Shown: positions 1,981 through 56,735, numbered from the stretch's first letter. The stretch is 64,000 nt of DNA from Psammoneis japonica (GCA_008632985.1 QPGO01000051.1:62001-126000); one strand, 5' to 3'. The notes: generated from the letters alone by a model not told the origin. Numbers and translations: made by a program.

Positions 1981-2148
1981 CTCAATAAGTGTACCGTNGC
2001 AAAGATTGACCACATCTCACTGGCCAATGTTCGTGTCAAAGTTCAGAAAGCTTGCCCAGATTTGGACACTGCACAAGCTGCTCAAGGGACCAATTGTTTC
2101 AAGAATTTGCTCTCAATCTCTGAAGCCTTCACAATGGAGATGCGGTGT

Positions 2149-2600: not shown

Positions 2601-2873
2601 TCTCATGCCTTCTACCAGTGTGGAAACGATGTTCACATGTGGAGAGGCTATCTTGACCGCGTGCGTAAAGAATTCATTTGTTAATCATTCGTTCAGGGGG
2701 ATTGATGGAAGCACAACTAACATCATGCCACTGATCTCGCTCGGATGCTTTTTGCGCGCGTAAAAATTTGAGGCGCGCGTATCGTGAAAATCTGTCGAGT
2801 TTTGCGAGTTTTCGAGTTTTCAGTTTTGATCATGATCAAGTTTTCTCAGTGAACTCCCAAACACGCTGCCACC

Positions 2874-18392: not shown

Positions 18393-19945
18393 CATGGACG
18401 CATGATGTGCACCCCAATGATGTTGATGACAAAAAGATGCCAGCTGAGCCATGTGTGCAGAGTTTTGCATGGATTGCTGCACATCATTTGCACAAGCAGT
18501 GTGTGGTTGATTTTGACAACTTCTTTTGGCTTTGAGACTGCAGAAGAGTGGTGCCAATCGCCAGTCAACAATTTGGAGCAGATGTGGCATGTGTCATGAA
18601 GGAAACATTGAGTTGTGGCTGGCATCATTCTAAAATTGACCTGTTGTGTCCAAACAATTTTTCAGATCTTCTTGACACATCACCTGGAAGTTGGTGCACA
18701 AAGTCACTGAAATGGATCTGTGTGATGTGTGAGTGGCCACACAAGTCAGAGCCATTCTTGTGATGAGCTCTGAGCCCTTTTGGAGCATGGGGTCAAAATG
18801 GCATTGCCCTGACAGCTTGCTTTTCTTGTTGAGAAAACAGTTCCCTGAAGCATGGACAACAAGGCACAACCAAATGTGGTTGACATGCAAGTTGCTAAAG
18901 TTGTTTTGTTTTGTGCATCACCTGGTGCTGGAACACATCAGATGCTCCCACCAGGGAGAGCCAACTTGAGTCTTGGCTGTCCCGCATGACCAAGAAGAGC
19001 TCCAACATCATGCTGTTTGTCCAGTGGGTCAATTGCCACTCAGGTCCTGAAATGGAGAACTTGAATCTTGCTGCACCAGCAAAAATGATGAAGCTTTCAC
19101 AGTGCCAGCCCACCCCACACCTTTGGGAGCAACAACTCATTTCAAAAACAAAACATCTTTGGCGCCCCATCCTCTGCAAAAAATGTTGCCAGAGAAGTTG
19201 TGCCACTGCCGGTCAAGGCATGGAGACCCATGAATCTTCTGCCACACTGGGCCCCCTTTTCTGCCCTGCTGGTGATGTTGCCACCCTGATGTCACCATTC
19301 CCGAAGCTCCTCCCACCCTCCTCCCAGCCTGCCTGCCCCCTCCATTCCAGCACTGACTGAAGCAAGCCACTTGAGCATGAGATTGAAGTTTCTTGGCCCC
19401 TCTGCTTCTGTCACCAATGGCTCCCTTGTGCTGTTCAATCCCTCAACAATGATGGGGTCTTTCTTCTTCCCTTTGCAGTTGATCACTTGGGTGGCCTTTT
19501 TCCCCCACCACTTGCTTCTTCTTTGGCTCTTCCTTCCCTGCCATCTGCTCTCAACCCAACCTCCCTGGTCCTTGTCTCCTTTTGCCCTTAAAGACTCTGA
19601 CACTTCCTGCTCTGCCTTTTCTTGTGTGTGCTCACTTCTCAATCTTCTCTTCTTTCCTCTGCAGACTTTGCTTGGAACCAACTCACCAGTGATGGCTTTG
19701 GAAGTTTGCACCACTCCTCCTCACCATCACAGTGGGCGATCAACCAGACTCTTGGCTGCAACATCACTTGCCATCTTGCCGCTCTGCCCTTTGTTTCCTT
19801 CCTGCTCTCCATGCAGATTCTTCTCCTGTTCCTTTTTTAAAATGCCCAGCATGCTGCATCATGTGCCCATTTTTCGCCTCTGCTCCGGCAGCTTCTTCCG
19901 TGCCTCCCTCTTCTGTCTCACTTCCCACTTCTGTTTGGGCTCTCT
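18393..19945 (-). mobile_element. TpA-depleted transposon-like fossil, possibly with a Ulp1/C48-like protease remnant
   Basis: Near-zero TA. The minus strand gives a K/R/E-rich segment followed by NHIWLCLVV...QCHFDP (QYYFDP if back-mutated). Confidence 0.4.
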
Positions 19946-27584: not shown

Positions 27585-28463
27585 TCAGTCTTTGTTCAAT
27601 GCCTTGATACAAGCTGTGGTAAACTTCTTGATAACTTGATGGTCAGGGAAGTTATACTTCGCTTCGGAAAGCACCGTCAAGGCCTTGCAAGCATTCGCCG
27701 CGTCAACAATCTTCTCCGTTTCCTTCTTGCTTGTCAAAAGTTGTCTGAGCAAATGGGAGCCAAGCCGTTGCATGTCCTCGTTGTTGACGAATCTCCTCAT
27801 GCTTTCAACAGCTAGTGGAATCAACCCAGCTTCAAACAATTCGACCTTAAAATCATCATCGTTGACTGCAAGATTTCCCAACACACCGCAAGCGCTGTCG
27901 TTGAATGCAAGATTTCCCAACACACCGCAAGCGCTGGAACAGCATTCACAGCGGTCAGCAAAGTTCTGCATGATCTTGACAATCGTGTCTGCCACCATTG
28001 GATGCTCACGAATAACCTTCTTGTGATTTTTATTATTGCAGGAAAGATTCATTAGAACGATAAGATTATCGTCAATGAACTCATGACGTTCCTTGTCTCC
28101 GACAGACTTCTCTACATTCTTCAGCATTACGATGTGTCCGCCTCCTTGGACAACTTTCAGACAATTTTCATTTGCGTAAGGGTTGCCATTGGGTTTGTCC
28201 TCATCCTCGTACGTTAAATCCTTTAGCTTGTAAGTAGCCTTTTCAACCGTTTCAGAGTCTTCGCTCCACAAATCATAACACACGAGCTGCTTAATCGAGC
28301 GCTCTTCTTCTTCTTCATCCGAGATTTCCTTGGATTTTTGCGCGTCGCCTCGACCTCCTTGTTCCTCAGCTTTGCGCTTACGATCGTTGGCACTCCTCAC
28401 TTCGTCGCGAGCGATGTCATCATTGTTGTTTGTGGCTGCTGCAGCGGTGGCTGAGGAGGACAT
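27585..28463 (-). CDS. Armadillo-like repeat protein (local family) with a 39 bp internal tandem duplication
   Basis: Intact ORF from the ATG at 28463. Contains SACGVLGNLAFND followed by SACGVLGNLAVND. Confidence 0.88.
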   Translation of the reverse strand: MSSSATAAAATNNNDDIARDEVRSANDRKRKAEEQGGRGDAQKSKEISDEEEEERSIKQLVCYDLWSEDSETVEKATYKLKDLTYEDEDKPNGNPYANENCLKVVQGGGHIVMLKNVEKSVGDKERHEFIDDNLIVLMNLSCNNKNHKKVIREHPMVADTIVKIMQNFADRCECCSSACGVLGNLAFNDSACGVLGNLAVNDDDFKVELFEAGLIPLAVESMRRFVNNEDMQRLGSHLLRQLLTSKKETEKIVDAANACKALTVLSEAKYNFPDHQVIKKFTTACIKALNKD

Positions 28464-31479: not shown

Positions 31480-32990
31480 TGTTGGATGTTGTGCGATGGA
31501 TTGTTGCGTCGCTTGCAGCAGGCAGGACGGACCAAAATGTGGCGCGTATTCATCGCACAGCAGCGGCGTCGCGTGCATGCACGGGTGTGCCTGTTCATGC
31601 TTTGACTCACGCTCACAAGTGCGGTCGCACACTGGAAGACATTGCAAAAGTCGGTTTTTATCCCATACATCAATGAAATGGCAACCAATTCTAACAAACG
31701 ACTTGAACATGAAGAAACACGACACTCTTAGTCCAAAAATGTCTCTCGTCCATCCAAAATGATTGGACTGGAGAAACCTGCTTTTGCTCACAACTGCCTC
31801 ACACAACAGAGAGATGACAAGCAACACTCCCGGGGAAAGAAAATCTCCTGCAATGGACATGTGTGTGATGGCTTGAGGGCAAATCTGATCAGTGGACTGC
31901 AGCATGTTCTGTGGCTAGAGAAAGTTCTGCAGGTGCTGGGGTTTCTTGGCGCATCATGTCCAACCTTGCCGCTGGCCAGAGCAAGAAGCAGCTTCATTTC
32001 TTCTCCATTTGTGCTGAACTTCTAGCACCTTGCACAGGATTGATCATGCTCAGATCACAGATGGGACTTTTGACTGTTGACTCCAAGGTCCAACAACATT
32101 GTTTGAGACCAGCCCCTTTTTTCAAATGGTGTGTTGCTCGCAAGAGCTGGTGCGCGCCGCCGGCTGCACGACCTCCTCACAGGAGACAGCAGGAGTGCCA
32201 TGGATCAAAACTGGAAAGTTGGGGCTCAAAAGGTGGCAGTGGCAAGGATGAAGCCAATGTCTCCAATGAGGAGGAGGACATTTCATCAGCTGCAAAACTT
32301 TGTGGTGGGGAGACCTGTGGACTGTGGAGCAGCCACCTCAGCAGCAATTGTTGACAATCAGAAGAAACAGTTTGATGAAGAATCCTTCACTTGGAAACAG
32401 AGACAAGAATGGTCTCCAGTGGGGCATGTCATTTTTAGGAAAACATCAAGAAGTTTCTTCATGCTGACTGTGGTGGTCATTGTTTCACACTGCACACTGC
32501 ACCTTGCCAGATGTCCATCCAAGCATGACTGACACTGTGGTCAGGGTCATCAAGCACTTTTCAGATAAAGTCAGTTGCTGCATGAGGGGGCAAATGGCTT
32601 TCTGGGGTTCCTTTTGTTTCAAATGATTCACCACAATTCTTGAATCAATGGCATTGGTGAAGTGTGCTTGGATTGAAGAACCCCCCGTTGGCCATCGAAT
32701 CTGTGCAAATTGACTTGCAGAAAGCACAGAGATCACAGAAATGCATGTGCAAGGTTTTTTGCTGCTGCTTGGCATGTGCTTTTGGACAGCAAGGTGAACA
32801 CAAAGAAGAACTTTAAAGCAGCTAAAGCTTGCAAAAGGTTCTGACGGTGGTGCAGGCTGCCTCTGTGGACAACTTTTTCCCGAGCATCTAGAGTTCACGA
32901 AAGTTTCCACTGAGTGCACAAGCTGTTGGCAACAACTGATTTGGTCACTGTCTGAAGCTCTCCGAATGTTTCAGAAGTTGAAGGAGAATG
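31480..32990. mobile_element. TpA-depleted domain with an unidentifiable repeat relic
   Basis: Very few TA, strong TG/CA excess and Cys/His-rich pseudo-ORFs. Confidence 0.45.
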
Positions 32991-34299: not shown

Positions 34300-37200
34300 A
34301 CGATGAGCGACAGTCATTGTCACTTTTTGTGTGCCGTTGTGTTGTGTCTGATGTTGGAGTGTTGGTGCGTGTTTCGCGCGCAAAAGCGAACCACATGCGC
34401 GGTACTCAAATCACGTAGGACTTTACGTGAAACAAGCAACCAACTTGACCCTATTTCACTCAATACCTTTTCTTGATGATCGAGTCGCTGGAGCATGCCG
34501 GCAGGACAGGATTGATAATGCGATTACATCCAAGTAGAGGAGCTGGCCTAAAACAAGCATTGAACACTGTGCACCATGCTTGAATCACACTCAACTTTCG
34601 TGATTGACTTCTTTAAAACATCGTCTCAGCCAGTTGCTGGACACACTTGGCGTTGGACACCATGTCTTTCGTCAACAACTTGTGTGTGAATGCAATCATC
34701 GCATGGTTTCATGTGAATGTAAATGCTGTGGGCAGAGGCTGGATGGCACTCTCTGGTGCTGCTTGCTCTGCCAGCTTCAGCCAGCTGCACGACATTGTGA
34801 CAGAGGTGGCGTTTGGAGCAACATTGCAGAAATGTCTTCTTTGTTGCCGCCACTCACATGAAAATTGAAATTGTTGTCACAAAAAAAATGTGTTTGTTGT
34901 GGCGATTGTTTTTTACAAGGACAAAGCCATTTGACGGTTGCAACACATCACACACCCCAGTGGATCCGTTGCTTGGATTCAAGAACAACAACGCACTGCC
35001 GCGCACCTTCTTGTCAAGTGCAGATGGCACCACGGCGTCAACGGCAATTTCTTCTGTCGATTTGTGTTTTTCACCAAAGAATGGCGATGAAGGAGGCAAG
35101 AACAGGAAACATTGCACTGGGCATTCAAAGCAAAAGAGCTGCCTCCGAGCGCCTCTGCTCGTGTGCACGCTGCAAAATGACAGAAATGATGGTTTCCTTC
35201 TCACAAAAACAACTTGCCGCAATGAAAACAACATTTTTTATGTTGACAATTTGAACTTTCATGTGAACAGTCACAACAAAAAAGATTTCTGCAAAATTGT
35301 GCATTTGGTGAATCACAGAATTGCTCGGCAACACACCATCATCATTTCTTTGGCCCTGCCGTGGCCCGTCTGCTGGCATCTCAGTGAGGAGACATCAGTG
35401 CACGAGGTGACCTGTGCATGCAAAGCATGCACGGTGCAGTTGATGCATGGACTCACAATTGAGAGTGTGGATGGTGTGGGGGGGGGGCACCATCAAAGAT
35501 GCTTCCCACCAATGTTGCTCAAGGCGACAACAGCTTGCTTGTTTCTTTGAAAGCACATTTTTGTGTCGATGTCACGAACTTCCATCCAAGATTGCAACCT
35601 GGGTTGCCTGCTGCATCAAACCATTTCTCAAGCAAGTCATGCAATTGCAGAACTGCCACAACCTCCACCAGGAAAAATGGAGCAGTCTGTCCATTGGTTT
35701 TTCTTGATTGATTGGCCTGTGATCTTCGTTGATCAACAGTCTTTTGATGCCACCAGAAATGGCCTGCTCGGCTCGAGCTTGTCTTCTCACTAAATTGTCA
35801 ACTTTGCCATTGAGAATGTTGAAGGCATTTGCATGGAATGTTGTTTGCAGGCTCTGGTGTGTTGCACCTGAATGTGCTGGGCCACACTGGGTGTGTGTGT
35901 GCCAACACAAGTGTCAAAAAGAGCAGAGAAAATTTTGCACATCCCAGGAAAAGGGCAAGGCACCAGGGGAAGATCTGGCACCAGAGCCCCTTCCATTTAT
36001 GATGACAATGGCACGTTGGTCATCAGCATTGACTTTGCATGGCCACTGATGGCAATGATGCATGGAGACCCTGAAATGACAGTGATGGAAGATGGTCGTT
36101 GACAGCAATGATGTGTGTGGAGAGACACCAAAATGACAGTGATGGAAGATTGGGCATGTGGGGCTCTGTCGCACATCATTGTGGACAAGAAATGGGATTT
36201 TTGAGTCAGGGCTCAAGCCCACAGCTTGAAGTGTGCAAGTCACAACCCCCCCCCCCCCCCCATTTCAAGAAACGAGAGGGTGCATGTGAGCTCTGTCCAG
36301 CACAAGCCCAAGAAGCAAGAGGCTCAGCCAGGACCCAGAGCAATTCTGAGTGCTTTCTGCAGGTGGAATTTCCAAATGATCCACGTGTGCAATGTCTGAA
36401 AGGATTGTTCCAAAAAACAGAGATTTGTCTCATGAACCCATCAGTTGCTCCAACGAGACAGAAGCTGGAGCCACCCTGAGAAAACCTCATTCTGTCTTGT
36501 GCAAAGTGCTTGCAAGATGGGGTTCCTGCAGGCAGGAGCATGAAGCATGAAATGACATTGCTGGAGCTCAATTTGTTGTTGTGCACATCAACTGAATTTT
36601 CGCACTCAAAGGGTCTGGATTGCACAGTTGAGATTAAAAAGCTGTTGAAAGAATGCAAAAAGGAGGATGATGCATCTTGCATGGAGGCTTTTGACCCTGA
36701 GATTTTTCTGCAGGGATCAGCTCTGGCAACAAACCCCAGGCTTTTCCTGCACAAAAAGGTTCAAATTTGGTCGAGACTGCTTGGTCAGTGCTCTGTTGTT
36801 GGGTGTGCCTTGGACATTTCTGAACACCATCTTTCAATGTCAAAGACAACTCCACCTTCTTCTGTGTTGTTGACTGCCAATTGGCTGAAGGTCAGCATGC
36901 CTTGGCACTTGGCTTGGATGTTTGTTTTGTCAATTGGAAGGGCAGAAAACCAGCCAATGTCAGAAATCTAAAGAACTTGAAATGTGACCCAGTCACTTGG
37001 GTGCTCCAAGAATGGCATTGTTGTGGTGAAGTCAACATCAAAAAGGCAAACACTCTGGCATTTTGTGCCATGTTGACTCAAACTTGGAACAAGCAGCTCA
37101 GGGAACACATTTGTGGCCCACCAGGACTGCCACGTGTGTGTCCCATGACATTCAATGCCCGGGCACCTAGTGGGCCACTTGTTGTGGGGCCAACACTGCC

Positions 37201-40165
37201 ATTGTTAGAAATGTTGGTTGCTGGGAATGCATTGCAGAGTCACTTGAGTGCATTGCAGAGGGAAATGAATGAAGTCATCTTCCTGGTGACAAAAATCAAG
37301 ACCCCATTTTTGATTTTGGTCGCTCTTTCCCAAAACATTCTTGAAGGCCTTGGCCACCACCACAGAACAAGCCAATGCAATGTGGTCAAGGGCGCCAATG
37401 GTTCATTTCAGCTGGCTCAAAAAAATGCCAGTGACAATTTTGCAGCACTTTTCTCATCATGTTTTTGAACAATGATGTGAGTTTCATGTGAACAATGCAA
37501 GTCTCAACAAAAGCCATTTTAGACATGTGCCACCTGTTGGCTTTCTTGATTTGCTGAGTTGCCTGCGGCATGATCGTTGCACTCATTGGATGCCAGGTTC
37601 TCCCAGTTGGGTTTTTGAGTCTGAGCTTCTTTTTTCAGCCTCAAGCTCACTGCATTTTGATGACATTTTTGCCTGCTTGAGATTGGCTTCATTTGGTGGT
37701 GGCTGTTCCCAGTTTCTTGATGGTCCAACAAGCTTTGCTGTGCTGTGCAAACTTTGAGTCACCACCAAGATTGTGGCTCTTTTCAGCACAACAGACAAAC
37801 GCAGGCGGGCTGGAGAGTGCACTTGATTTTTGTTTCATTTTGCCACCTTTGCAGTCACGCATGTTTCCTCTTCTGTTCTAAAATGTGGCTTTTGGAACAA
37901 AGTTGTCATTCTCAAACCTCATGACAGAGTCAATGTCCCTGAGGCAACCTGCTGCCAAGCAGCAGTGCTGAGCCTGGCACTTGCTCTTGCCGGGGAGGGG
38001 CTGGCAGGCAAGAAGGATCCATCACATGATTTGCCTGTGCCTGATGAAAGCCATGGCAAATGACCTCATCTCTCATGGCTTCTGCTGAAATAGAAACCAA
38101 TTGGCCAGTGAACAGATTTGCAAAAAGAGCACATCTTTGAAAAGAGCGACTTGCTCCTGTGCAGTTGGAAGTTGGTGGTGCAGGCTGATTGGTCACTCTG
38201 GCCCCAGCAACTGCACCAGCATCTTCATTGATGCCATGTTTCATTGCATGGCACATGGCATCCCTTTCAAAGGAGTCAGGGTTGAACTCCTCAAATTCCT
38301 TGTCCCAGTCCCTTGTTGCTGATGGCGCGTCAAATGATGAGCTCACACTTCTTTGTGACAGTGGACTGGGGCAAATTGTGGGGCCACATCGCCATCAGAG
38401 TCATTGGCATCGGTGGCGCTGGCCATGTCATCAACAACAAACAAGCACTTGAGTCATCTGACAAGTCCAAAAACAGCAACGCAATGCATGAAAATGCATC
38501 TCGTCATCATTGCTCCTTTGTGAAATCCACCTCTTTTGGAGCTCGGAGGGAGAGGTGAGGCTTCCCGCATTGATCAAGGGCTCGAGTCTCGTTGATCACC
38601 GCAGAGCCTCAGGCAGGCACCTGCACTGGAGACTTCATTGATCGGGGGCAGGCAGGGTGCCAGCGGGCGGGCTTTGCCAGCAGGCCTGTCAGCAATTTGA
38701 CACAAAAAAGGACCATCCAGTCACTCCAATCTTTAAAATCAGTGGCGCCACCAATTGCACAACGGCAATCATGCACTGCAGGTGCAATGAGTGTGGTTGC
38801 AAATGCAAGGCAAATGATGGCAAGCCACTGCTTGAGTTGCCAAAGCTTGTCGGACAGTTGCATCCCATGGACATTTGGTGCACATGGTTGCCAACTCCTC
38901 ATTTCACATGGACTTGACAACAACAAGATGCGCTAAACACGAGTTGAAAGAAAGCAGCAATGGTGATGCCATGTCAGCATGCTGCACCAACAACGTGGCC
39001 GAGCTTGCCTTGACATGGAGGAGCAACATTGTTTGAGGTGGATTGAAGCAGCAAAAAGTTCCACGATGCCCACACCAGTGTTTTCAGCTTTTGAGAAGTG
39101 GCTGGGTCACTGCGGACCAACAGGTCTTGAAGCGTGGTTCAATCGGCACAAGTGCTCTGCGTCTCCTGGAGCGGCAGACGCCGGTGGACGGTGCGATCCA
39201 GATTCTGGTGAGCCTCTCTTCATGGAAGACACCAAGCCGGTGGTGGAAAATGCAAAGGTGACAGCTTGTGGACTCGATGAGCCTTCACAATGTGGAGACT
39301 TGTGCAGAGTCGTCAAGCCTTCAAAATGGTCAAAGTGTGAGCTTGGCACGTGCATCACCACCGCCGGCACCAAATCCAAGCTTGAGAAGTTTCATCACAT
39401 CGTCAAGCATTTTGGAAACACCGGTTCCAGGAGTGCCTTCATAGATGCACTGTGTCTTGCTGGAACTTGTGAGTGCAACATTGCGGTGTGTCAGCATCTT
39501 CGAACAGATGAGATGACAGCGGACGAGCGCGCCAAGATTCCGCACGCCTTTCGTGGGGTTCCAATGTTTCTTAACCACAGCAGGCTCAATTGCAACAACA
39601 AGTTGTTGGAGAAAGCGAGAGTCAGTCATCCTGTGCATGAAAATGTTGAAGAATTGAAAGCAGACAATGGGGCAAGCGGTGTTTTTCAGCATGCACGAAA
39701 CAACTGGAAAGCTTGGGCGAGGAACTCGAAGCGAGAAAAGCAAAATTTGGCACAGCAGCGGTGAGCAGCAAGAACAACCCTGACAGATGCATGTGCAGCA
39801 AGTGTGGGACAAGAAAATGCAAAAGGAACTGTGAGTCACAACAGCCGATGCCGACGTGTGCTGAGGGGCCGAGCGTGAAAAAAAATGAAGTCCTCGTGTC
39901 TTCAAGATGTGGCAGTGCCGAGATGCGAACCACCCGTCCCTGATGCACCACACCCTGTGCCACATTGTGCACCGATTGCCATTGCTCCATTTTGGACCAG
40001 TTTTCCAACATATTTGCCGCCGTTGCAGATGGCGCCGAATCCGCAATCGCATCTGACCAACAAATTCTGTTGCTTCCGAGCAAGGGATTTTCATCTTTCA
40101 AAAACAAACTTGTTGGGGGTGGATGCTCGAGGAAGAGCACCACATGATGAAGAACATTGTTCATC
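34300..40165. mobile_element. Large TpA-depleted domain of nested transposon-like fossils
   Basis: About 5.9 kb with sparse TA. Includes a transposase-like remnant at 38979-39764. Confidence 0.6.
38979..39764 (+). pseudogene. DNA-transposase remnant (Dada/DUF6729-like C-terminal catalytic region, tentative)
   Basis: DPDSGEPLF...DLCRVV...CITTAGTKSKLEKFH resembles the D..G.PLF...LY...Y...RG.S.LE.FH pattern, with Tyr replaced by Cys. The 261 aa ORF contains no Tyr. Confidence 0.5.
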
Positions 40166-40584: not shown

Positions 40585-41946
40585 ATGGCTTCTTTGCATA
40601 TCGTGCCTTTCGAGGACTTTTTCGGTGAGCAAGGCCTCTCTACGGAGAACTTTAAAGACACTTCAGTGGAGGACTTTCGTGAGTTGTCTCGAACGCTCTC
40701 TGGTCCACTTCAGCACGCTTCCAACTGGCGAGCCTTTTGCGAAATCAAAAATAGTCTCATCGTCATTGACCGCAAGATGACGTGCCTCACTCAAGTCTGC
40801 GATGAAGCAGACTTACGTATGGAGGAACTTCTGGAATTGAAAACAAAAGAGTTCAGTTTTCTTGTTGTCAACATTCTCGGCCTCTCCGTGGTGGATTATC
40901 CTCCTCTGTTTCATCTCTACACGGAGGCACAAAAGCAAAAGAGTACAGACACCAACACCGCCTCTCTGGAACCTCTCATGGCTCCAAACAGCAGTGGTGG
41001 TACTGCTGCTGCCGATACGGTCACTGCCGATCCAGTTGTTCCTCAACAAGTGACCTACGGCAAGAAGCCGGCCCCTGCTCCTGGCATCCCTAAGAACGAG
41101 AGAAGAACTTCTGTTCCTGTGGTTTCATCTCCAGCCCCTCATACTTGTCCCATGCCCGCCCCTGTAGCCGTGACTCCGTCCGCCGCTGCAGTAGCCGCTC
41201 CCGACGAAGCGAGAGGTTCCAACGATCGTAAGCGCAAAGCCGAGGAGCAAGGAGGTCGAGAAGACGGGGAAGAGGAAGAGCGCTCGATTGGGCAGCTCGT
41301 TGGGGAAGACTTGTGGAGCGATGAATTTGAAACGGTTAAAAAGGCGACTGTGAAACTGGTTGAGCTAACTTCCCATGAGGATGACAACCCTGGTGTAGAA
41401 GCAAATTGCAAAAGAATTGTCGAAGCCTCCGGGCATCGTGCCGTGCTGGAGAATGTGAAGAAGTCTGTGGGCGAGAAGGAGCGTCATGAGTTCATTGAAA
41501 ATAATCTTTGCATTCTAATGGAGCTTTCCTACACTAGTGACAAGCGCGCGAAGATCATTCGCAATACTCCAAAAATCGTTGACACAATTGTCAAGATCAT
41601 GCAAACCTTTGCTGACCGAAGTGGATGCTGTGCCAGCGCTTGTGGTTTGTTGGGAAATCTTGCGGAAAAGGGTGCCGATTTCAAGGTCAAAGTGTTTGAA
41701 GCTGGGCTGGTCTCGTTAGCTGTTGAAAGCATGAAGAAGTTTGCCAACGATGAGTACATGCAATGGTTTGGCACCTTGTTCCTCGAACAACTTTTGAGAA
41801 GCAAGAAGAAGAAAAACAAGATTGTCGATGCAGCAAATGCGTGCAGGGCCGGGTCGGTGCTATTCGAAGCAAAGCACAACTTCCCTGATAATAAAGATGC
41901 CGTGAGGCATATCAAAGCCTGTATCAAGATATTGAACGAACGCTGA
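40585..41946 (+). CDS. Armadillo-like repeat protein (local family) with a unique N-terminal extension of about 200 aa
   Basis: Intact ORF. The family-homologous part starts near 41180 (AAVAAPDEARGSNDRKRKAEEQGG). Confidence 0.85.
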   Translation: MASLHIVPFEDFFGEQGLSTENFKDTSVEDFRELSRTLSGPLQHASNWRAFCEIKNSLIVIDRKMTCLTQVCDEADLRMEELLELKTKEFSFLVVNILGLSVVDYPPLFHLYTEAQKQKSTDTNTASLEPLMAPNSSGGTAAADTVTADPVVPQQVTYGKKPAPAPGIPKNERRTSVPVVSSPAPHTCPMPAPVAVTPSAAAVAAPDEARGSNDRKRKAEEQGGREDGEEEERSIGQLVGEDLWSDEFETVKKATVKLVELTSHEDDNPGVEANCKRIVEASGHRAVLENVKKSVGEKERHEFIENNLCILMELSYTSDKRAKIIRNTPKIVDTIVKIMQTFADRSGCCASACGLLGNLAEKGADFKVKVFEAGLVSLAVESMKKFANDEYMQWFGTLFLEQLLRSKKKKNKIVDAANACRAGSVLFEAKHNFPDNKDAVRHIKACIKILNER

Positions 41947-42199: not shown

Positions 42200-45164
42200 G
42201 TGTAGCCCGGTGTCTCGTTTTACTACTTGGCAGAATGTTTCCTGGAGATCTCGTCCGCTGTTGACAACGCCAAACCGACAGAACTGGGAGATGACCGTTC
42301 CGCACCTTGAATTACGCAAGCAAGTCTTCCTGTATGTTGCTCCTGCCGTCCTCTCACCATTTAGAGAAGAGCAGCATTTCAATTTTCAACCCCCACAACC
42401 GTCCAGTCGATTTTAGCGAAATCATCAAGAGCATCCCAGATTGCGGTTTCTAATGCTTGGATCAACTTGAGAAGGCTGGCACTGTCATGTGAGAAAACTG
42501 AACTGGAGACCTCTTCATGCGCTTGGCAACAAGTCGCACTCAGGGAGCACTTTCTCCTTCTTTCCTTCCATTGCAAATGGGCCCCACATCACCTTTTCCT
42601 TTTACCTGCACCATGCCATGCTGTTCAAAAACAAAATCACCCCCTCCAGGACTTTTGCAACATGCTGCATCATCTGAATTCTCACCGGAACTTCCTGAAA
42701 CACACCCATTCCAGAGGCTGCACATGTGCAGATTGTCAACGAAACCCTTTTTGACAACTTCCCACCAGACTCAATTCTCAATTTGCTCCCTCTTGAGTCC
42801 TTGCCTGGTGGAGTCAGTCATGGTTGGCCTTCGTGCAACACACGTCAGCTGCGCAACAGCCAGCAGGCCAGCAGCAATGTGGCTTGCCTTTGTGGAGCTC
42901 CTGCAGCCTGCAGCCACTTGTGGACTCACAGCAGGAGTCATGTTCATGACAAGGTCAGTCAAGTGACAGACAGGTCCTGCTGATGGCAGGGTGTCATCTG
43001 GTGCACGTTGTGTGCATGTGCCAGCACACCTTCTCATGCACGTCAGAGTGCACAACATTGCAACATCTGCACACATGACAAAAATGTGTTGCTGTGTTAT
43101 AAAACCTGCTTGTCTGCACATGACAGTTTTTGTCATTTGGTCAATTGTCAATCTCCTGCCATTCTTCATGTTTGAACACAGATGTTTTTTTAGTTTTTGT
43201 GCTCTGCCTTTTTCACAACAACCGACGATCTTTAACGACAAGCCAAACATTGCAATTGCATGCAATGCAATTTTCATCATGCAAAGTGTGCACTGATTGT
43301 TTGGTCAATGACTGTGCTCCAATTTGCCCAGTCGTCCGCATCGTCCTCTTCATTCCATGTGTCTCATCCGCTCTCTTGCAAGAATTTCAAATGTGCCACT
43401 GCCGCGTTGGATGTTTCCTTGTCACCGTTCCAAAAAAGCCACACTGCATGTCTTGCATTTGGGTGAACATCATCAAGAGGAAAAGGTCCCTCGAAACGCC
43501 GAATCACATCGCTGCTCCCCTCTTGACATTGTGTCGTCGGCTTCTTTTTCTCTTTCTTCATTTCGCCTGTCCTGTTTTTCTCTTCCTTCTTCGTCTTGGT
43601 GCCGCCTGTTTTCACCGTCTCCGGCATCTTTCCATCTGAATCCTTCTTTTTCATTGATCCCGTCGCCATCGCCTTCATCATCTCTTGTTGTGTTTTTTTT
43701 TCTGTTGTGTGTCACTTTGTTTTGGATCCATGTTTCTGACTTCTCTCCATGCTGTCTCCATTTCCGAATGTTTCTTTGTGATTGTTCGTGTGCATCACTT
43801 GAAGGCACCCATGTGTTCTTCACGCACCTTGACGCGTGTGCAGAAATCCATGTTGTTTTCCAGTGCATGCACCCTTTCTCCTGATGCTGTTTTGCACAAT
43901 GTTTTCTTCCATCAACTCCACACTCCTCATTGCTCTTTCCCAGCATGATCTCATGTGGGATTTCCCTGGGAGAAGTTGCGCGCGCGTCTGGCAGGTTTTT
44001 GTGTTTAAAACTCCAAATCCCACCAGGCACACATGTGACTTCTCCCACACACCACTCTGGCACATTTCTACAGAAACCAGTTTTTGGTGTTGGAACAGCA
44101 ACCATGGTGCCATGTGACCTGTCGGTCGCCTCTCTGTTGCAAGACAACAACGATTCCTGCCTCGAGGAGGCCGCATTTGAATCTCTCTTTGCCAACGGTT
44201 TTGGAGTGATCGACAGCAACGAGCGGAGCCATGTCAAAGCAACAATCGAGACGGTGAAATCCAAGGTTCAGTTCCACCGCGACTCCACTTGTGACCCCTC
44301 TCCGAATTGGATCGCGCTTGCCTGTGTGTGGCAAAAGTCGAAGGGCAGACCTCATTTTTTTGTAGAACTGATGGCTGTGATCTGCGTTGTTGCAAAGGAA
44401 CTTGGGTGCAAGAGCTTGCTGCACTTTCTTTCCACAAAAGGATGGAGTCACTCCAGTCAAGGCGCCAAACGCATCAACTCTTTTCTCCTTGGCAGAACTG
44501 CACCAAGCTTGATGTTGCTGTTCCCAGTGTGCCTCTCAATGAAATCAACAATGCAATCATGCAATTCCAGGGGAGCACCACGTGTGTCCATGAGCTTCTT
44601 GCACAACTCCACGCAAGCTCCGTCAAGATTTGTCAAAGAGGGAGCAGAAGCCAAGGCCTCTTCTGCAGGAGTGTGATGCCTGATCCTCAAACGTTGATCC
44701 TCATCGTGAATGTCCTCTTCCTCCTCCATTGTCACGTCCAACACTGCAGCAAAGGATTGACCACCGCCAACATCCAAATCGTTCATTGCCAAAAGTTCAA
44801 CTCCATGCATGCTGTGGTTTGATGAAATGGAGGACATGTCGTCCATTCCGTGCAGTGCGTCATCCGGGGAGGGGAACAAGGGGCTGCTGCACGGATCACT
44901 CGTTGAAGATCTTGGGAATCTGCTGCAAGCAGATTGCCTTGGATGGGATTCGTCATCATCAGAGGATGAAGAGGAAGAGCTGCCACTTTCTTTGGGTGGC
45001 CCCTCTGTTGTGGCAGGAATGTTGCTTTGATCTGGGATTGGATCTTGGGTTTGCAACTCTTGGGCAACTGAGCAACACGTTGGTGAGTGTCTCCAATGGC
45101 AGGCTGTTCGCAAAAAACTTTTGCCACACCCGGGACAGAGAAGAGGGTTTCCGTCCATTGTCAA
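42200..45164 (-). mobile_element. Degenerate minus-strand coding fossil, transposon-like, with an N-terminal CxxC finger
   Basis: CPGCGKSF...H...C followed by ELCKKLMDTRGAPLELHDCIVDFIERH. Fragmented ORFs continue to about 42200. TA is depleted above about 42420. Confidence 0.4.
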
Positions 45165-45379
45165 TCAGACAACGTTGACAGGGCCTTCATCAAGACTCAT
45201 GCTCGTCATCCTTGTCTTGTGGATGAGAAAGGAAAAGAAGAACAACACGCAAAAAATGGCGGGAAATTGGCAAACATTGCATTGTCTTCCAGATTTGGAT
45301 GATTCTTGTGGGCATGACGTGTCTGCATTTTGATTTTTTATCTGGCATTTACGATGAACATTGCACTTTTCATTTGCCA

Positions 45380-47350
45380 TCAAAATGCAGGATGTTGTCT
45401 CCGTTGAAGCGCAATGACAGCCATGTCAAAAAGCAAGTTGGACTGTTCGTTGTTGTGTGTGAGTGCATTTTCAAATTTCAATGTTGCTGACAATGATTTG
45501 TGCAATGTCGTGGAGAAAAACAGAGTGGCTGGCTGTCTCAACACGACCCAAACAACGGCTGCACTGTTGAACAACAACACTCCTCTCACTGTTGCCATGA
45601 AAAGATCAAGATGTCGTCTCCAGCACCACCGGCAAAGAAGAGAAAGAAAAATGAGTGATGGCACCATGGCTTTCCTGTGCACACTCAAGCTGACTTCAAC
45701 ATTGTTTGACTCATTGGACACTGGTGCTCTGACAAGATCATGCTCTGCTGCTGAATCTTTCCTCCCAGATGCTTGCCAGCAGAGCCTGCACACTGACCCT
45801 CGGCAATGAAGCTTCCCTCCTTCATTGGGCATTTTGCTCACATGCTGCACTCCCACCCAAAATTGATGGCCCACCTTCAGATTTCCACCAAAGTGGACCA
45901 GCAGGAGCTGGCACCCATCTGCTGGCTCCATGGCTGTGAGTGGGTCTGGAGCTCAATCTCCACAAGCAGACCTCTGGAACCAAACCAGCTTGGCTCTGGG
46001 GATCCAGCTGTTGCTCTGTTTTCAAGGGGGCAACAGCCACTGCAGAGTGGGGAAGATGATGCAAAAACCTGTTGATCAGCTCAAGTCTGTCCAAACAGGT
46101 TTGATGTCTCTTGCACTTGCCACTTTGCTGGACCAGCTGATTGCTCACACCTTGGTGACTCAACTCTTGCTCATTCTCTTTGTGTGGCTGTTTGGCAAAA
46201 AAATGTGAAGAGTTGGACAGGAGCCAAAAGGATGCACTCCCACCCACCCTGGGAGCTGGCACTCACCTGCCAGAAATCTGGGATGGTCGCATGTGCATGC
46301 ACACCATCGCACAACTGAGCTGCTGTGCAGAGCAGGTTGTTTGTGCTTTTTGCCACTCATTGGAGTGACACAGAGACCATCAGTGACAAGCAAAAAATCC
46401 ACTTGATTTTTTGCATGAAATGGCAAAAATCTGATTTGCTCGCCCATCATGATCATGGCAGTTTTTGAGATTTTTGAGGGCACTTGTCCTGTCATCTCCA
46501 AAGTGGCAAATTGACTTGTGTTGGGTTGTGACTTGTTGCCATGGTTGAAAAAATGGCACCCTGCTCAGCTGTGCGTGCTTTTGGCTCCATGAGGCATGAG
46601 GCACTGCTGTGAACTTCTGAAGTCATGCTGCTGCTCATGCTGAAGTGCATTTGCACATCACACAGTTCCCAGTGGCAGCACAAATCAGAAATTTTGTGAC
46701 TGCATGCACTGTTGTGCCAGCTTCTTTTGCTTGTGCTGCAGCTGTGGCACTGAGTGCCGCCCACTGCTCTCTCACAAGAATGGAAAAATGCCCCCCCCCT
46801 CCTGGCTGTGCCCTGGGTGAGTTTGCCCCCTTTGTTTGCTCAATGGCTGCCTTTCTCTCAGCCACAATGGCCAAACAGTCTCTGGAGCCATGCAGAAGCA
46901 TTGCTTGACTGCACAGGACAGATTTGACAGTGCATCCTCTGAGCAGATGAGCTTGTCCAAAACAGGCATTGAGCCACTGTGCTGGGCCAACAGAAGAGTG
47001 CACATTCAACTTTTTTTGTGCACAAGCAAGTGATTCTTTCTTGAAATTGTGCTCTCAAGGGGCTTGACACACTTGGCAATGGAGGAGGCCATGTCTTTCA
47101 TCAGCTGTTCACAATGCATGAGAATCGCAGTCATTGCCTCAAGTCATGGTTGCATGAACAATGTGTGGCCAAAGGCTTGGCGGTGCTCTCTGCAGTGCCA
47201 TGCCATCAGGCCCCACCCTCTGTGTGCTCTCAACTGGCTGAACTGCAAAGCACATCTGTGACAGCTGCAAGCTGCAGTGACATGCAACCAAAGAGGAGAT
47301 TTGAACACAAAATTGAAAATGAAACAATGCAAGTGGCTGGCAGCACAGTT
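45380..47350. mobile_element. TpA- and CpG-depleted relic, unidentifiable
   Basis: I see no TA and few CG across about 2 kb. Confidence 0.4.
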
Positions 47351-47553
47351 GCTGATGTCAGAGATGAATCTGCTTTTGCTGTCATGTGTGGGTGTGGGGG
47401 TTGCTCAAAACTGGAGGGAGGCAAGAGATTGGAAAGTGCCCCAGCAACAGTGGTGAGTGTGTTTGTCTGCACCCAGAATTCTTTCAAAGATTCCCCATAA
47501 AACTGCAAACCATTTTTTGCACTTGCAGCTTTTGCAACAAAACTTTGCACACA

Positions 47554-48400
47554 ATGTCTTCCTTCATGGCCCCTGCAGCAGCCACAAACAACAATGACGA
47601 CATTGCTCTCAATGAAGCAAGGAGTGGCAATGATTGCAAATGCAAAGCTGAGGAACAAGGAGGTTGAGGTGATGTGGAGGAGGAACCCAAGGAAATCTCA
47701 GATGAAAAAGAAGAGCACTTGATTGAGGAGCTCCTGCTTGTGTGGGAGGACTTGCAAAGCAACAACTTTGAAACAGCTGCAAAGGCAACCACACAGCTGG
47801 TCAAACTAACTTCACATGACAATGACAATCCTGATGCAGAAGCAAATTGCAAAAGAGTTGTGGAAGCCTCCAGGCATGTTGCCGTGCTGAAGAAGGCAGA
47901 GAAGTCTCTTGGCCACAGGAGCCATCACAGGTTTGTTGGTGCAAATCTTTACAATCTCAAGCATCTTTCCTGCAAGAGTGACAAGTGCCAAAAGATTGTT
48001 CACCAGACCACTTCAAAGGTGGTGGGTGCAATTGTGAAGATCATCCAAAACTTTGCTGGTGGCCGCAGAGGATGCTGTGCGCCAGCGCGCTTGTTGTGCA
48101 TTGGGAAATCTTGCACTCAATGATCATGACCACAAGGTTAAATTGTTTGAAGCTGGGGGATTTCATTGGCTGTTGAAAACATGAAGAGATTTGCCAATGA
48201 TGAGGAAATGCAGCATGGCAGCTCCCATTTGCGCTCAAAGAACAGCTTTTGACAAGGAAGGGGGGAAACAACCAAAGAAGATTGCTGGTGCTGCAGATGC
48301 TTGCAAGGCCTTGACAGTGATGTCCAAAGTGAAGTGTGACTTCCCTGACTGTCAAGGCATCAAGAGGAAGACCACAGCTTGCATCAACACATTGAACGAC
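47554..48400 (+). pseudogene. Hypermutated pseudogene copy of the ARM-family gene (upstream region homologous from about 47355)
   Basis: Collinear with the 27585-28660 locus. CGA>TGA stop at 47665, frameshifts, and systematic TA>TG/CA and CG>TG/CA changes. Confidence 0.93.
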
Positions 48401-48685
48401 AACGGCATCTACAGCAGTGTGAAGCTGCTTTATTTAGCAAGACCTGTCCGCAGGCTTGTGAGTTTCCTACTGACGACAACAGACATGTTTCAGTTTCTAC
48501 GTAGATTCTACGTAGGCCGCCTTAATCCTACGTCATTGGTTGATTTCGATTGGCTCAACGACGCACCGCCGCACAAAATCACCACACTTCTATCTTGTTG
48601 TTGATGTTGCGTTGTTGCGGTTCTCATCCATTGATTTTGCATCGATTAGTGTATTAGCAACCACATCAACCCTCACTAAAGTATA

Positions 48686-50830: not shown

Positions 50831-51049
50831 ACCGCACGCACCTATGGTATGCATGATGCGATCGATAGATGGATATATAGATGCAAGCAAGAAACGTGAG
50901 GAGAGAGCTATTACTGCTAGAGAAGTAGCCTTAGCTTTTGAGCACCACCTGAAATGAGCTTGGCCGGTGTTGCGCACTGCGCACCCACGCGGCGCGCATC
51001 TCGCATTGCATATATGTTGATGGTTTTTGTCATTTTTGGACTTGCCACG

Positions 51050-51897
51050 ATGTCCTCCTCCGCCGCTGCAGTAGCCACAAACAACAATGATGACGTCGCT
51101 CCCGACGAAGTGAGGAGTGCCAATGATCGCAAGCGTAAAGCTGAGGAACAAGGAGGTCGAGGCGACGTGGAGGAGGAATCCAATAAAATCTCGGATGAAG
51201 AAGAAGAAGAGCGCTCGATCGAGGAGCTTGTGTGGGAGGACTTGTGGAGCGAAGACTTCGAAACGGTTGAAAAGGCGACCAACAAACTGTGGAAACTGAC
51301 TGTCAAAGATGACAACCGCGATGACATAGAAGCCAATTGCAAAAGAGTTGTGGAAGCCTCCGGGCATGTTGTCATGCTCAAGAATGTAGAGACATCTGTG
51401 GGCGACAAGGAACGTCAAAATCTTATTCGCACCACTCTTGGCATTCTAATGAGTCTATCCTACAAAAGTGACAAGAACAGGAAGATCATTCGCAAGACTC
51501 CAAAGGTGGTGGATACGATCATCAAGATCCTCCGAAACTTTGCTGACCACTGTGGATGCTTTGCCCGCGCTTTTGGTGTGTTGGGAAATCTTCCATTCAA
51601 CGATGATGATTTTAAGGTCAAATTGCTTGAAGCTGGGGTGATTCCGTTAGCTGCTGAAGGCATGAAGAGATTTGCTGATGATGAGTTTATGCAAGAAGTT
51701 GGCTCCGATTGTCTTGCCACCCTTTTGACAAGCAAGAAGGAAACGAAGAAGATTGTCGACGCAGCGAATCTTGCAAGGCATTGACGGTGCTATCCGAAAC
51801 AAAGTATAACTTCCCTAACAACCAGGACATTAAGGAGAGCACCGTAGCTTGTTTCAAGGTATTGATCGAACACTTATTTGCATTCTATGAGAGATGA
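51050..51897 (+). CDS. Armadillo-like repeat protein (local family); 1-nt frameshift near 51769
   Basis: Homologous to 55911-56735. The C-terminus CKALTVLSETKYNFP continues in another frame. Confidence 0.8.
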
Positions 51898-52599: not shown

Positions 52600-53755
52600 G
52601 ATGGAGATGGGCTATTTCATAGCAGGATTGACGACTCGCATTGTCTACCGGCTGGTCATAATGGCGCACCTATTGTCGATGGTGTTCAAATGAGACTCTA
52701 CAAATGCGACAAGAACAAATTGAGTCAGAAGTGGGAGTGGCACGAAGGATTCGAGGCTCCCATTTTCCTCACGAGCAACCCAAACTTGCACCTAGAAAAA
52801 TCGAGGAGTGGACGAGTACAACGCATGACAGCTTTTACCACGAAATGTTCCATTCAATCTTTACACCCGCACCACCCGTGTCGAAACTCATTTCAGAAAG
52901 CATGGCAAGCCTGGGGTTAAAGCCGGGCGAGTATGCAGCAGCTCATCTCCGTGCCTTGTATGCCCCAGCAGAACGCTCAGAGAAAGAAACTGCCGAGTTT
53001 GCCATTAATGCCGTCAACTGCGCTTCCCCGTTTGCGTCCGGGTGGTCCTATCTACTTTGCTTCGGATTCAAAACACGCGGTTGAAATCGTCTCGATTGAG
53101 CAGCTTGTTTGGGAAGACTTGTGGAGCGACGACTTCGAATCGGTTAAAAAGCGACTGAAAACCTGAGTCAACCTACCTACCAAGATGATGACAATCCTGA
53201 TGTAGAAGAAAATTGCAAAAGAGTTGTCGAAGCCTGCGGGCATGCTTTCATGCTGAAGAATGTAGAGAAGTCTGTGGGAGACACAAGGAACGTCTTAAGT
53301 TCATTCAAGCAAATCTTTTCATTCTAACGAATCTTTCCTACACGAGTGACCAGCGCAGGGAGATCATTCGCAAGATTCCAAAGGTTGTTGACACGATATT
53401 CAAGACAGCGCAAGCCTTTGCTGATCACTGTGGATGCTGTACCCACGCTTGTGGTGTGTTGGGAAATCTTGCATTTAACGATGACGGCTTTAAGGTCAAA
53501 TTGTTGGAAGCTGGGGTGATTCCGTTAACTGTTGAAAGCATGAAGAGCTTCGCCAACGACAACATCATGCAACGGCGTGGCTCCTGTTTGCTCAGACATC
53601 TTTTGAAAAGCAAGAAATACACGAAGAAGTTTTTCGATGGGGCGAATGCTAGCAAGGCCCTAACGGTGCTGTCCGAAGCAAAGTATAAATTCCCTGATGA
53701 TCAATGTGTCAAGGTGCTTACCACAGCGTGTATCAAGATATTGAACGAACACTGA
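52600..53755 (+). pseudogene. Chimeric relic: ricin-B-lectin-like fragment, glycosyltransferase-like fragment and 5'-truncated ARM copy
   Basis: HCLPAG...DGVQMRLYKCDKNKLSQKWEW, then GEYAAAHLRALY...AINAVNCAS.LRPGGPIYFASDS running directly into SIEQLVWEDLWSDDFE. Confidence 0.65.
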
Positions 53756-54382
53756 TTTGGCATTCTGTGACAGGTGGATGCCAAGCTGTTATGCGTCTGG
53801 GACAATAGTTGGTGTCAAGAGAAACTTCCACGCAAGCTCGTCCTTGCTGTTGTGGTGATTGTTAGCTTACATTGATGTGGTTGAGATGTGATAGTGTCCG
53901 CCGCGTTGGAAGTAGAGACTCTAGAGAGCGAAATATAAGTACGGTAGTACACGTCATATTGAGCAGGATTTAACTTGCGCTGTAACAGCTGTCGTCTATG
54001 TGCAAGCGACGATACAAGGAAGAGATGAATATCATGTTACCGCGACGAAGGACTTTCCGAGACACCGACACTATTATTTGCATCGTGCGGATTCCTTTCG
54101 TTTCTTTAAGCGCAGCAGCAGAACTCTGTAGCTAGATGCCGAGGTACATTTAGCCGGGTATCTCTACCTGTATCTTTTTGAGGATTTTCTCAACGCCAAC
54201 ATGGACAACAAAGTAGTACCTGGAGAGGAGGCAGACAAGTACAACGAATACAAGAAGGCGTGAAAGAAGGGGGGCGTGAATGCCTTTTCAGTCTATACTC
54301 AATACGATAGTCTCTTGCATTATACCCGCATTTGTACTAAAACTGGTACAGTAGCTCGTAGTTTCTGCGATGAAACTGCATG

Positions 54383-55910: not shown

Positions 55911-56735
55911 ATGTCCACCGCCGCCGCCGCAGCAGCCACAAACAACAACAATGGCATCGGTCCCATCAAAGTGAGGAGCGCCAACGATCGTAAGCGCAAA
56001 GCAAGGGAGCAAGGTGGTCGAGGCGACGTGGAGGAGGAATCCAAGGAAATCTCGGATGAAGAAGAAGAGCGCTCGATTGAGCAGCTTGTTTGGGAAGACC
56101 TTTGGAGCGACGACTTTGAAACAGTCAGAAAGGCGACTCTTGAGGTGAAGAAACTGGTTTTGAATGCAAGTGACATCCCTGAAGCAGAAGCAAATCGCAA
56201 AAGAATTGTCGAAGCCTCCGGACATGTTGTCATGCTGAAGAATGTAGAGAAGTCTGTGGGAGACAAGGAACGTCATGAGTTTATCGGCACAAATCTTCTC
56301 ATTCTAATGTTTGTTTCCTGCCTGAGCATCAAGCGCCAGAAGATTATGCGTAAGACTCCAATGATCATTGAAACGATTGTGAAGATCATGCAAACCTTTG
56401 CTGACCGCAGAAAATGCTGTTCCAGCGCTTGTGGTGTGTTGGGAAATCTTGCGGACGAGGATGACGATTTCAAGGTCAAATTGTTTGAAGCCGGGATGAT
56501 TCCGTTAGCTGTCGAAAGCATGAAGAGATTCGACGAGGATAAACTTATGCAATGTCTTGGCTCCACTTTGCTGGAAAACCTTTTGAAAAGCGAGAAGGAA
56601 ACGAAGAAGATTGTCGACGCAGCGAACGCTTGCAAAGCATTGACGGTGCTATCCGAAGCAAAGGATAACTTCCCTGACAACCAGGAAGTCAAGGAGAGCA
56701 CCGTAGCTTGTATCAAGATATTGATCAAACACTGA
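55911..56735 (+). CDS. Armadillo-like repeat protein (local family)
   Basis: Intact 274 aa ORF with SACGVLGNLA and LFEAGMIPLAVESMKRF. Confidence 0.88.
   Translation: MSTAAAAAATNNNNGIGPIKVRSANDRKRKAREQGGRGDVEEESKEISDEEEERSIEQLVWEDLWSDDFETVRKATLEVKKLVLNASDIPEAEANRKRIVEASGHVVMLKNVEKSVGDKERHEFIGTNLLILMFVSCLSIKRQKIMRKTPMIIETIVKIMQTFADRRKCCSSACGVLGNLADEDDDFKVKLFEAGMIPLAVESMKRFDEDKLMQCLGSTLLENLLKSEKETKKIVDAANACKALTVLSEAKDNFPDNQEVKESTVACIKILIKH

Follow-up and report, generated by a model that had tools for sequence, protein, structure and literature searches.

Context-specific loss of TpA and CpG in a duplicated host gene and its surroundings in the diatom Psammoneis japonica

Can a gene duplicate be eroded by a mutational process that acts on particular dinucleotides and leaves its close relatives untouched? 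The question is raised by a stretch of 64,000 nt from the diatom Psammoneis japonica (GCA_008632985.1 QPGO01000051.1:62001-126000), analysed here as a whole and referred to as the window, in which one member of a small gene family, copy B, has lost most of its TpA and CpG dinucleotides. The initial annotation, made from the sequence alone, described 47355..48405 as a host gene copy caught and destroyed by a mutator, with intact siblings as controls. Here we compare copy B with five sibling copies and with the DNA around it. The changes are specific to two dinucleotide contexts, fall equally on both strands and extend over a bounded segment of which B is only one part, and we consider it probable that B lies in a chromosomal domain subject to a context-specific mutator.

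Copy B and its siblings

The window holds multiple copies of a local family of small proteins of about 275-290 aa. Six of them, A to F, were aligned with MAFFT. Their positions, and that of a more distant relative, are as follows (ORF, open reading frame).

47359..48396, plus strand: copy B, mutated, frame-broken duplicate of the ARM-like family (blastn, alignment)
41179..41946, plus strand: sibling A, the family-homologous part of ORF 40585-41946; frame intact, TA and CG normal
50954..51784, plus strand: sibling C, normal composition; frame shortened by a 1-nt deletion close to the 3' end
53091..53760, plus strand: sibling D, frame broken by deletion of 1 nt and insertion of 2 nt; 5' part missing
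55911..56735, plus strand: sibling E, intact 274-aa ORF, normal composition
27585..28463, minus strand: sibling F, intact 292-aa ORF; upstream region common to B
2874-3692: distant family member

The family consists of real, fast-evolving host genes, as had been proposed. The pairwise ratio of non-synonymous to synonymous substitution rates (dN/dS) among A, C, E and F is 0.43-0.51, and a stretch of 65 nt in the 3' flank immediately after copy A is matched exactly in a spliced-looking sequencing run. While a word-based protein search with copy F gave no match, an exhaustive phmmer search did find relatives of F: 140 at E<=0.001 and 25, full-length, at E<=1e-10. Several are similar in length and match end to end, the best being 40% identical (E 1.5e-28), and long multi-repeat proteins match family residues 183-290. 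By sequence similarity the family would be termed ARM-like only; ARM-repeat Pfam profiles score below their curated thresholds (ARM_PUB 21-22 bits, cut-off 33; ARM_LRRK2 15-18 bits, cut-off 26.2).

Homology between B and F detected by blastn spans 47359-48397, in good agreement with the extent first assigned, and includes about 200 nt upstream of the start codon. Because this upstream sequence is common to both, B is a DNA-level duplicate that brought its promoter side with it and not a copy of an mRNA. Its reading frame is interrupted by a premature TGA at codon 38 (CGA>TGA) and by indels of +4, -1, +5 and +5. The observed/expected ratio (o/e) in B is 0.05 for TA and 0.17 for CG, against 0.25-0.42 and 0.89-1.01 in the siblings. 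Judged by the window's normal DNA, the 1038 nt of B should hold about 39 TA and 58 CG; they hold 4 and 7, a depletion far beyond chance. The GC content (0.47) lies within the sibling range of 0.45-0.49. TA and CG are normal in all five paralogues, whose identity is 70-79%. Among them sibling D is a dead-but-unmutated control: its frame is broken, yet its TA o/e is 0.42 and its CG o/e 0.89, so loss of function alone does not yield the pattern, and relaxed selection as the sole cause is rejected.

The initial annotation expected an excess at TpA and CpG on this branch only, and a branch-specific count gave just that. In a strict test, restricted to the core alignment and to dinucleotides common to at least four of the five siblings, B has lost 6/6 TpA (2 to TG, 3 to CA, 1 other) and 20/21 CpG (7 to TG, 13 to CA), and 25/26 of these losses end as TG or CA. 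The five siblings pooled have lost 4/14 TpA and 11/51 CpG (Fisher p, B against pooled siblings, 0.011 for TpA and 4.6e-9 for CpG). In a looser test, which includes the flanks and requires agreement of at least three of the five siblings, the 41 CpG have become TG at 17 sites and CA at 17, with 4 kept, and the 21 TpA have become TG at 6 and CA at 6, with 1 kept. The two strands of B have therefore been changed equally often in both contexts.

Outside TpA and CpG, B is unremarkable. Private AT>GC changes amount to 16/207 (7.7%; siblings 4.7-9.5%), private GC>AT changes to 12/148 (8.1%; siblings 4.6-8.2%) and private transversions to 15 (siblings 12-19). Because these other contexts fall in the sibling range, the excess in B is context-specific, and the length of its branch (0.24, against 0.13-0.21 for the siblings) is due to changes at TpA and CpG only. 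GC-biased gene conversion, which has no dinucleotide specificity, is rejected.

The family tree is star-like, with supports of 27-42, and the direction of change was read from other evidence. Five copies agree against B. The siblings share the composition of the window's normal genes, and B that of the non-homologous segment around it. The stop and the frameshifts sit in B. Finally, at columns conserved among 13 remote homologues the sibling residue is present (for example W66 in 8 of them, D69 in 11, G109 in 11, P155 in 9, P216 in 9, G235 in 9, L265 in 9 and A268 in 10) and the B residue is never the majority. Taken from sequence comparison, the direction thus runs from the TA/CG state of the siblings to the state of B, and the early statement that it is clear was correct.

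The particular changes first cited as examples fared less uniformly. Five of the seven are private to B: aagtataac>aagtgtgac, cttgtatcaa>cttgcatcaa, gctatg>gctgtc in the upstream region, gatcgtaagcgc>gattgcaaatgc, and ggtcgaggcgac>ggttgaggtgat, which creates the CGA>TGA stop. The other two, tcctacaa>tcctgcaa and gatgtagaa>gatgcagaa, are not private, since TGC and GCA are found in copies E and F too, and because these copies share the B state the direction at the two sites is ambiguous. Destruction of the gene by the mutator is likewise only partly borne out: the stop is present but stems from a CpG change, and the four indels are foreign to the process. Death of the B gene may have preceded its mutation.

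Mutated segments in the window

A two-state hidden Markov model (HMM) of dinucleotide classes was applied to the 64,000 nt and marked six mutated segments, which together cover 17,096 nt (26.7%).

1..2612, unstranded (HMM): mutated segments 1-1733 and 1996-2612, flanking a TA-rich island with an N
17601..19874, unstranded (HMM): mutated segment with duplicates of the 3' end of a host gene
31748..32813, unstranded (HMM): mutated segment with a decayed ARM-like relic
34550..40010, unstranded (HMM): mutated segment with 3.1 TA/kb and 22 CG/kb; no protein domain recognised
42452..48396, unstranded (HMM): TpA/CpG-depleted segment of 5.9 kb containing B

The mutated state has 2.4-4.0 TA per kb against 31-76 in normal DNA (37-47 in its four longest segments), and 10-28 CG per kb against 49-61. 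TG and CA are correspondingly raised, to 92-120 per kb against 73-84 and to 97-117 per kb against 53-73. The sum of the four dinucleotides is about 240 per kb in both states, as expected from in-place conversion of TA and CG to TG and CA. In most 500-nt windows of the mutated segments TA o/e is 0.00-0.10. The window is otherwise ordinary gene-dense eukaryotic DNA with a GC content of 0.41-0.54, and the host genes between the segments encode coproporphyrinogen oxidase, an M24 peptidase, an HSF-type factor and DUF6824, NYN and SET domain proteins.

B forms the right-hand 1.0 kb of segment 42452-48396. The segment as a whole has 14 TA where about 225 are expected and 110 CG where about 333 are expected, together with 669 TG and 622 CA. 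It contains two further elements, and a left spacer of 591 nt.

43043..45764, unstranded (word depth): high-copy dispersed repeat; 9 TA, 86 CG
45765..47358, unstranded: right spacer between repeat and B, at single-copy depth; 1594 nt, 0 TA, 8 CG

Observed and expected TA are 1 and 22 in the left spacer, 9 and 103 in the repeat (2722 nt) and 0 and 60 in the right spacer; the corresponding CG counts are 9 and 33, 86 and 152, and 8 and 89. Loss of TpA is thus uniform over repeat and non-repeat DNA, while loss of CpG is weaker in the repeat. Because TpA is close to zero everywhere and CpG is less depleted in the repeat than in the spacer, the two arms of the process run at different rates. On the simplest reading there are two processes of unequal rate, and the repeat is a younger arrival in a domain already affected.

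Copy number in this segment was judged from contigs of a sequencing run, X1, aligned to 42000-49500 for depth and differences. Summed word depth over 43004-45764 is 5,500-17,500, against 32-58 in the flanks. More than 2,000 short contigs fall on the repeat stretch, and seven diverge to the left of 43043 (consensus agreement 0.47); this pile-up and the divergence at 43043 identify 43043-45764 as a dispersed high-copy repeat. A single X1 contig of 2966 nt and depth 36 covers 45626-48591 with zero differences from the window, and as it spans both B and the 1.6-kb spacer, both are at single-copy depth. The view that the process reaches beyond repeats is hence upheld, the single-copy spacer and B being as free of TpA as the adjoining high-copy repeat.

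The same signature separates the copies of the repeat. Among the best-supported 30 of 60 differences between them in 43043-45764, 23 set CG or TA against TG or CA, and three sites have TG in some copies and CA in others, which implies independent resolution of one ancestral TA or CG. When places over 42000-49500 are counted by kind of change, 64/70 in run X1 are transitions.

The right boundary drawn by the HMM, 48396, coincides with the end of clear B homology at 48397. Weak homology with more CG>TG/CA changes may extend to about 48460, where normal TA and CG density returns, 230 nt ahead of the first exon of a DAHP synthase gene. No convincing terminal repeats or target-site duplications were found at the ends of 42452-48396. 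An ORF of the repeat, 44457-45158 on the minus strand, begins with a C2H2-like CxxC...HxxxH motif and had no match in a word-based protein search. Its possible link to Plavaka, by way of an atlas cluster in which 56% of the members are Plavaka (score 0.91, recognition 1845 < 2300), was too weak and was not used.

Two side observations concern the haplotypes. In run X1 the positions 42044 and 48455 are directly connected by a contig of depth 27; contigs of the block itself have depths of 32-36. At 48562-48721 there are two allelic X1 contigs, with depths of 35 and 28.6. Possibly the other haplotype lacks the 6.4-kb block or carries a version that differs by more than 12%.

Host-gene relics are also contained in three other segments, and one of them provides a further natural experiment, which ended as B did. 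The 3' end of a gene for a 595-aa protein (23507-25294, minus strand; parent region 23367-23938) has been duplicated twice in tandem, at 17355-17822 and 17815-18392. The first copy begins in normal DNA to the left of segment 17601-19874 and overlaps the segment with its 3' part. In the second copy 0/15 parental TpA are kept (8 to TG, 4 to CA), and 11/37 parental CpG (11 to TG, 9 to CA).

The few TpA that survive in mutated segments follow a neighbour rule. On at least one strand 38/50 (76%) are followed by A (NTAA/TTAN), against 683/1775 (38%) in normal DNA (Fisher p = 1.7e-7). A per-strand multiplicative survival model, fitted on four tetranucleotide classes, gave s(A) 0.59, s(G) 0.40, s(C) 0.16 and s(T) 0.135. 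Survival in the six remaining classes was predicted as 0.16, 0.064, 0.054, 0.026, 0.022 and 0.018, and observed as 0.091, 0.054, 0.041, 0.020, 0 and 0. This suggests strand-wise action with the preference TAY > TAG > TAA, in a small sample in which some survivors are perhaps newly made TpA.

The mutated segments are not simply "transposons". A Pfam search with 83 stop-to-stop ORFs of at least 90 aa (E<=0.01; a further 12 of the longest at E<=5) found no transposon or viral domain in them; the only match in these ORFs is a fragment of a haem peroxidase, with no reverse transcriptase, integrase, transposase or capsid. Long ORFs overlap on both strands of the mutated segments, the 83 of at least 90 aa lying in about 19 kb. 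TAA and TAG stops both contain TpA and are therefore missing, hence the many long overlapping ORFs, which gene callers could mistake for genes.

Two features complete the picture of the window.

213-545, minus strand: animal haem peroxidase relic in segment 1-1733 (Pfam E 1.5e-9, profile positions 394-461 of 530)
48688-50402: plastid-type class-II DAHP synthase, with an intron at 48758-48900 (GT..AG)

The ORFs next to the haem peroxidase fragment lie in other frames. In the same part of the window the TA-rich island 1734-1995 (76 TA/kb) stands beside the sole N, at 1998, between two mutated segments, and may be an assembly gap or a low-complexity spacer. Segment 31748-32813 probably holds an older, more decayed copy of the ARM-like family, to judge from three colinear, frame-shifted motif matches at about 32300-32835 (LW.DLW; P.M.DT.V.V...F.D..CC; LL.S..TKK..AA.ACK). 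The gene at 23507-25294 has weak matches to pseudouridine synthase and C2H2 profiles. The C-terminal 157 aa of its product (23507-23980, minus strand) matched nothing in Pfam or PDB; the atlas clusters closest to them are mainly viral (Nucleocytoviricota, Uroviricota), one having 2OG-FeII_Oxy_3 in 14% of its members, and this part, which was copied to the mutated segment, is possibly a small dioxygenase-like domain.

The C-terminal half of the DAHP synthase (49674-50402) is 88-92% identical to proteins of Seminavis, Cylindrotheca, Nitzschia, Pseudo-nitzschia, Odontella and other diatoms, which by itself marks the source of the window as a diatom. The signal peptide encoded in exon 1 closes with ...SSNAF|VPA, which we take to be a typical diatom plastid-targeting motif. 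A second run, X2, is labelled "DNA?" yet behaves like RNA, because an X2 contig lacks the intron 48758-48900. B is touched in this run solely by paralogue contigs with mismatches, which says nothing either way on its expression.

Mechanism and competing explanations

The explanation that we favour, and hold to be probable, is that B is a host-gene duplicate inside a chromosomal domain under a context-specific A:T>G:C mutator, acting on DNA at TpA, with slower decay of CpG. In the main arm the self-complementary TpA would become TpG or CpA through an A:T>G:C transition on either strand. In the second, slower arm CpG would become TpG or CpA, as from deamination of methylated cytosine. The process acts on a bounded domain and on no particular sequence family: repeat, single-copy spacer and gene copy are affected alike, and it ends within tens of bases of the right end of B, beside the expressed DAHP synthase gene. 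Paralogues 3-8 kb from B are unaffected. Targeting may follow a silenced or methylated state of the chromatin, the process may be a defence against repeats or foreign DNA, and the TpA arm may be the work of an enzyme that deaminates adenine in DNA to hypoxanthine, which is read as G, and requires a 5' T. Adenine deamination in a silenced, methylated domain is offered as a working model, of which the footprint is what we see in the sequence.

Several points weigh against this explanation. The star-like tree means that polarity leans on composition, coding state and remote homologues, and on no rooted tree. At least four host-gene relics lie in mutated segments, and duplicated or silent DNA could equally be the target. 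As no transposon or viral domain was recognised, the copy number of the repeat is all that speaks for a defence against foreign DNA. Run X1 is of unrecorded platform and may be the window's own assembly source. Both the targeting rule and ongoing activity are things that we infer.

In kinetoplastids and dinoflagellates, base J and 5-hydroxymethyluracil (5hmU) tend to occupy T before A. A chemistry on the thymine side, in which T in TpA is modified (to 5hmU, for example) by a dioxygenase of TET/JBP type or some other enzyme and mispairing or faulty repair leads to T>C, would have the same TG/CA outcome because TpA is palindromic. In the sequence, A>G on one strand and T>C on the opposite strand look the same, and the neighbour rule can be taken to concern the base 3' of A or the base 5' of T. 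However, 5hmU pairs mostly like T, so that near-complete T>C conversion would need an extra step, and Mettrop et al. (bioRxiv 10.64898/2026.01.13.699255), the sole publication on the signature, prefer adenine deamination. We regard the thymine route as unlikely.

Duplication itself might be what is sensed, through homology, in a process resembling repeat-induced point mutation (RIP), with B mutated as a duplicate. B, the ARM-like relic, the two 3'-end copies of gene 23507-25294 and the high-copy repeat are indeed all duplicated, and all in mutated segments. Such a process would nevertheless have had to spare five paralogues of 70-79% identity, the frame-broken D included, and to clear every TpA from the spacer 45765-47358, which is at single-copy depth. 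Its chemistry would be opposite to that of fungal RIP, which makes TpA from CpA, and the hypermutated viral insert of Bigelowiella is described as single-copy in the available text of the preprint (bioRxiv 10.64898/2026.01.13.699255). The chances of a RIP-like origin therefore seem slight.

Hyper-editing of RNA by an ADAR-like enzyme (A>I after U), followed by reverse transcription and insertion, would account for the neighbouring base, a 5'-U preference being typical of ADAR enzymes, as the available text of the same preprint discusses (bioRxiv 10.64898/2026.01.13.699255). It sits badly with equal change of both strands within B (6:6, 17:17), with the roughly 200 nt of promoter-side sequence common to B and F, which no mRNA copy would carry, and with the mutated non-repeated spacer, and it leaves the loss of CpG unexplained. 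We think it very improbable.

Modified bases can produce systematic errors in some long-read consensus sequences, and it might be supposed that there is no mutator, and that the pattern is an assembly or base-calling artefact at such bases or the native composition of foreign DNA. Little credence is left to this, even if run X1 may itself be the assembly data of the window: the 2966-nt k-mer contig of X1 is identical to 45626-48591, the run behaves like one of accurate reads (it shows bubbles between alleles, about 160 nt long, and over 2,000 short contigs from repeats), B also carries indels and non-context changes, and native foreign composition is ruled out by the in-place conversion seen against the siblings.

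Relation to known systems and significance

The mutator favoured here is not wholly new, as the same TpA signature has been published for Bigelowiella natans by Mettrop et al. (bioRxiv 10.64898/2026.01.13.699255), who describe TpA-targeted hypermutation of integrated viral DNA. According to the available text of that preprint, 231/302 nuclear single-nucleotide mutations in mutation-accumulation lines fell in two integrated viral regions, those in the viral regions being nearly all A>G or T>C at TpA, and the de novo rate in some lines was about 1000-fold over background. In 124 clusters of that genome, windows are poor in TpA and rich in CpA+TpG. Transposon-type domains, reverse-transcriptase and DDE-type ones among them, are over-represented in TpA-poor coding sequences, some host-type domains are affected as well, and an ADAT2-like DNA adenine deaminase is proposed there as the agent, without proof (bioRxiv 10.64898/2026.01.13.699255). 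A text search of the available preprint did not find the word "diatom", and full-text literature searches found no report of TpA-specific mutation in diatoms; PMC9258296 and PMC4504042, inspected by passage, have no bearing on it.

The likeness to Bigelowiella is close. TpA has become TpG or CpA at 5/6 strict sites in B and 12/15 in the second case, with none kept in either; the changes are confined to discrete regions, here six segments, beside normal DNA; and the lasting footprint is clustered TpA depletion with CpA+TpG enrichment. There are also differences. The host here is a diatom (Stramenopila), there a chlorarachniophyte (Rhizaria). Depletion here is near saturation (TA o/e 0.00-0.10, 2.4-4.0 TA/kb), whereas their viral insert has a Rho of 0.45, and the strong loss of CpG that is coupled to it here goes unreported in the available text of the preprint (bioRxiv 10.64898/2026.01.13.699255). 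This CpG loss is heavy and may be a separate process; changes other than at TpA and CpG show no rise outside the target context here. Their hypermutated regions are integrated viral DNA; the segments here include a high-copy repeat and host-gene relics, and no viral or transposon domain was recognised in them. Finally, the process is known there from de novo mutations and here from its footprint, in which a duplicate with intact paralogues gives polarity site by site.

Fungal RIP likewise ruins repeats by context-specific transitions, can spill into single-copy genes and leaves islands of skewed dinucleotide content. However, it is C>T mainly at CpA, makes TpA and lowers GC, whereas here TpA is destroyed and GC is kept (0.47 in B); and it mutates all copies of a duplication, where here five paralogues are spared and a single-copy spacer is affected. 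The CpG>TpG/CpA arm has exactly the signature of methyl-CpG deamination (20/21 in B) and is strongest in the same segments, as far as sequence can tell, but such decay cannot explain the loss of TpA, which in the repeat is faster and more complete than that of CpG. Footprints of ADAR and APOBEC enzymes in animal retroelements are similar in their clustered transitions and neighbour preference and in being read as restriction of mobile DNA; they are strand-biased and tied to RNA or reverse-transcription intermediates, whereas here the strands are equal and non-mobile DNA is included.

A wider claim can be put forward more tentatively, its chances seeming to us a little short of even: diatoms may own a chromatin-domain-directed genome-defence mutator that erases TpA faster than methyl-CpG decays, obeys a strand-wise 3'-neighbour rule (TAY > TAG > TAA), passes from repeats to adjoining single-copy DNA and culls gene duplicates. 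In a bolder form, suggested by the half-depth of the block and by the contig joining 42044 to 48455, the target would be DNA that is present on one haplotype only or strongly divergent between haplotypes.

To date, the only report of region-wise TpA removal is a 2026 preprint on a chlorarachniophyte. With the same footprint in a diatom, near saturation over a quarter of a 64-kb window, such removal would become a candidate for a general genome-defence mechanism of major marine primary producers. If this is the same kind of system as in Bigelowiella, either an ancient mechanism spanning the Stramenopila, Alveolata and Rhizaria (SAR) or convergence would be indicated. Diatoms include genetically workable species, so that the enzyme and the targeting rule are testable there. 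A gene copy with intact paralogues is the cleanest natural control, as it gives direction, context specificity and background rate on one alignment. It also shows that ordinary genes are not immune, which bears on the expansion of gene families and, through spurious long ORFs, on annotation.

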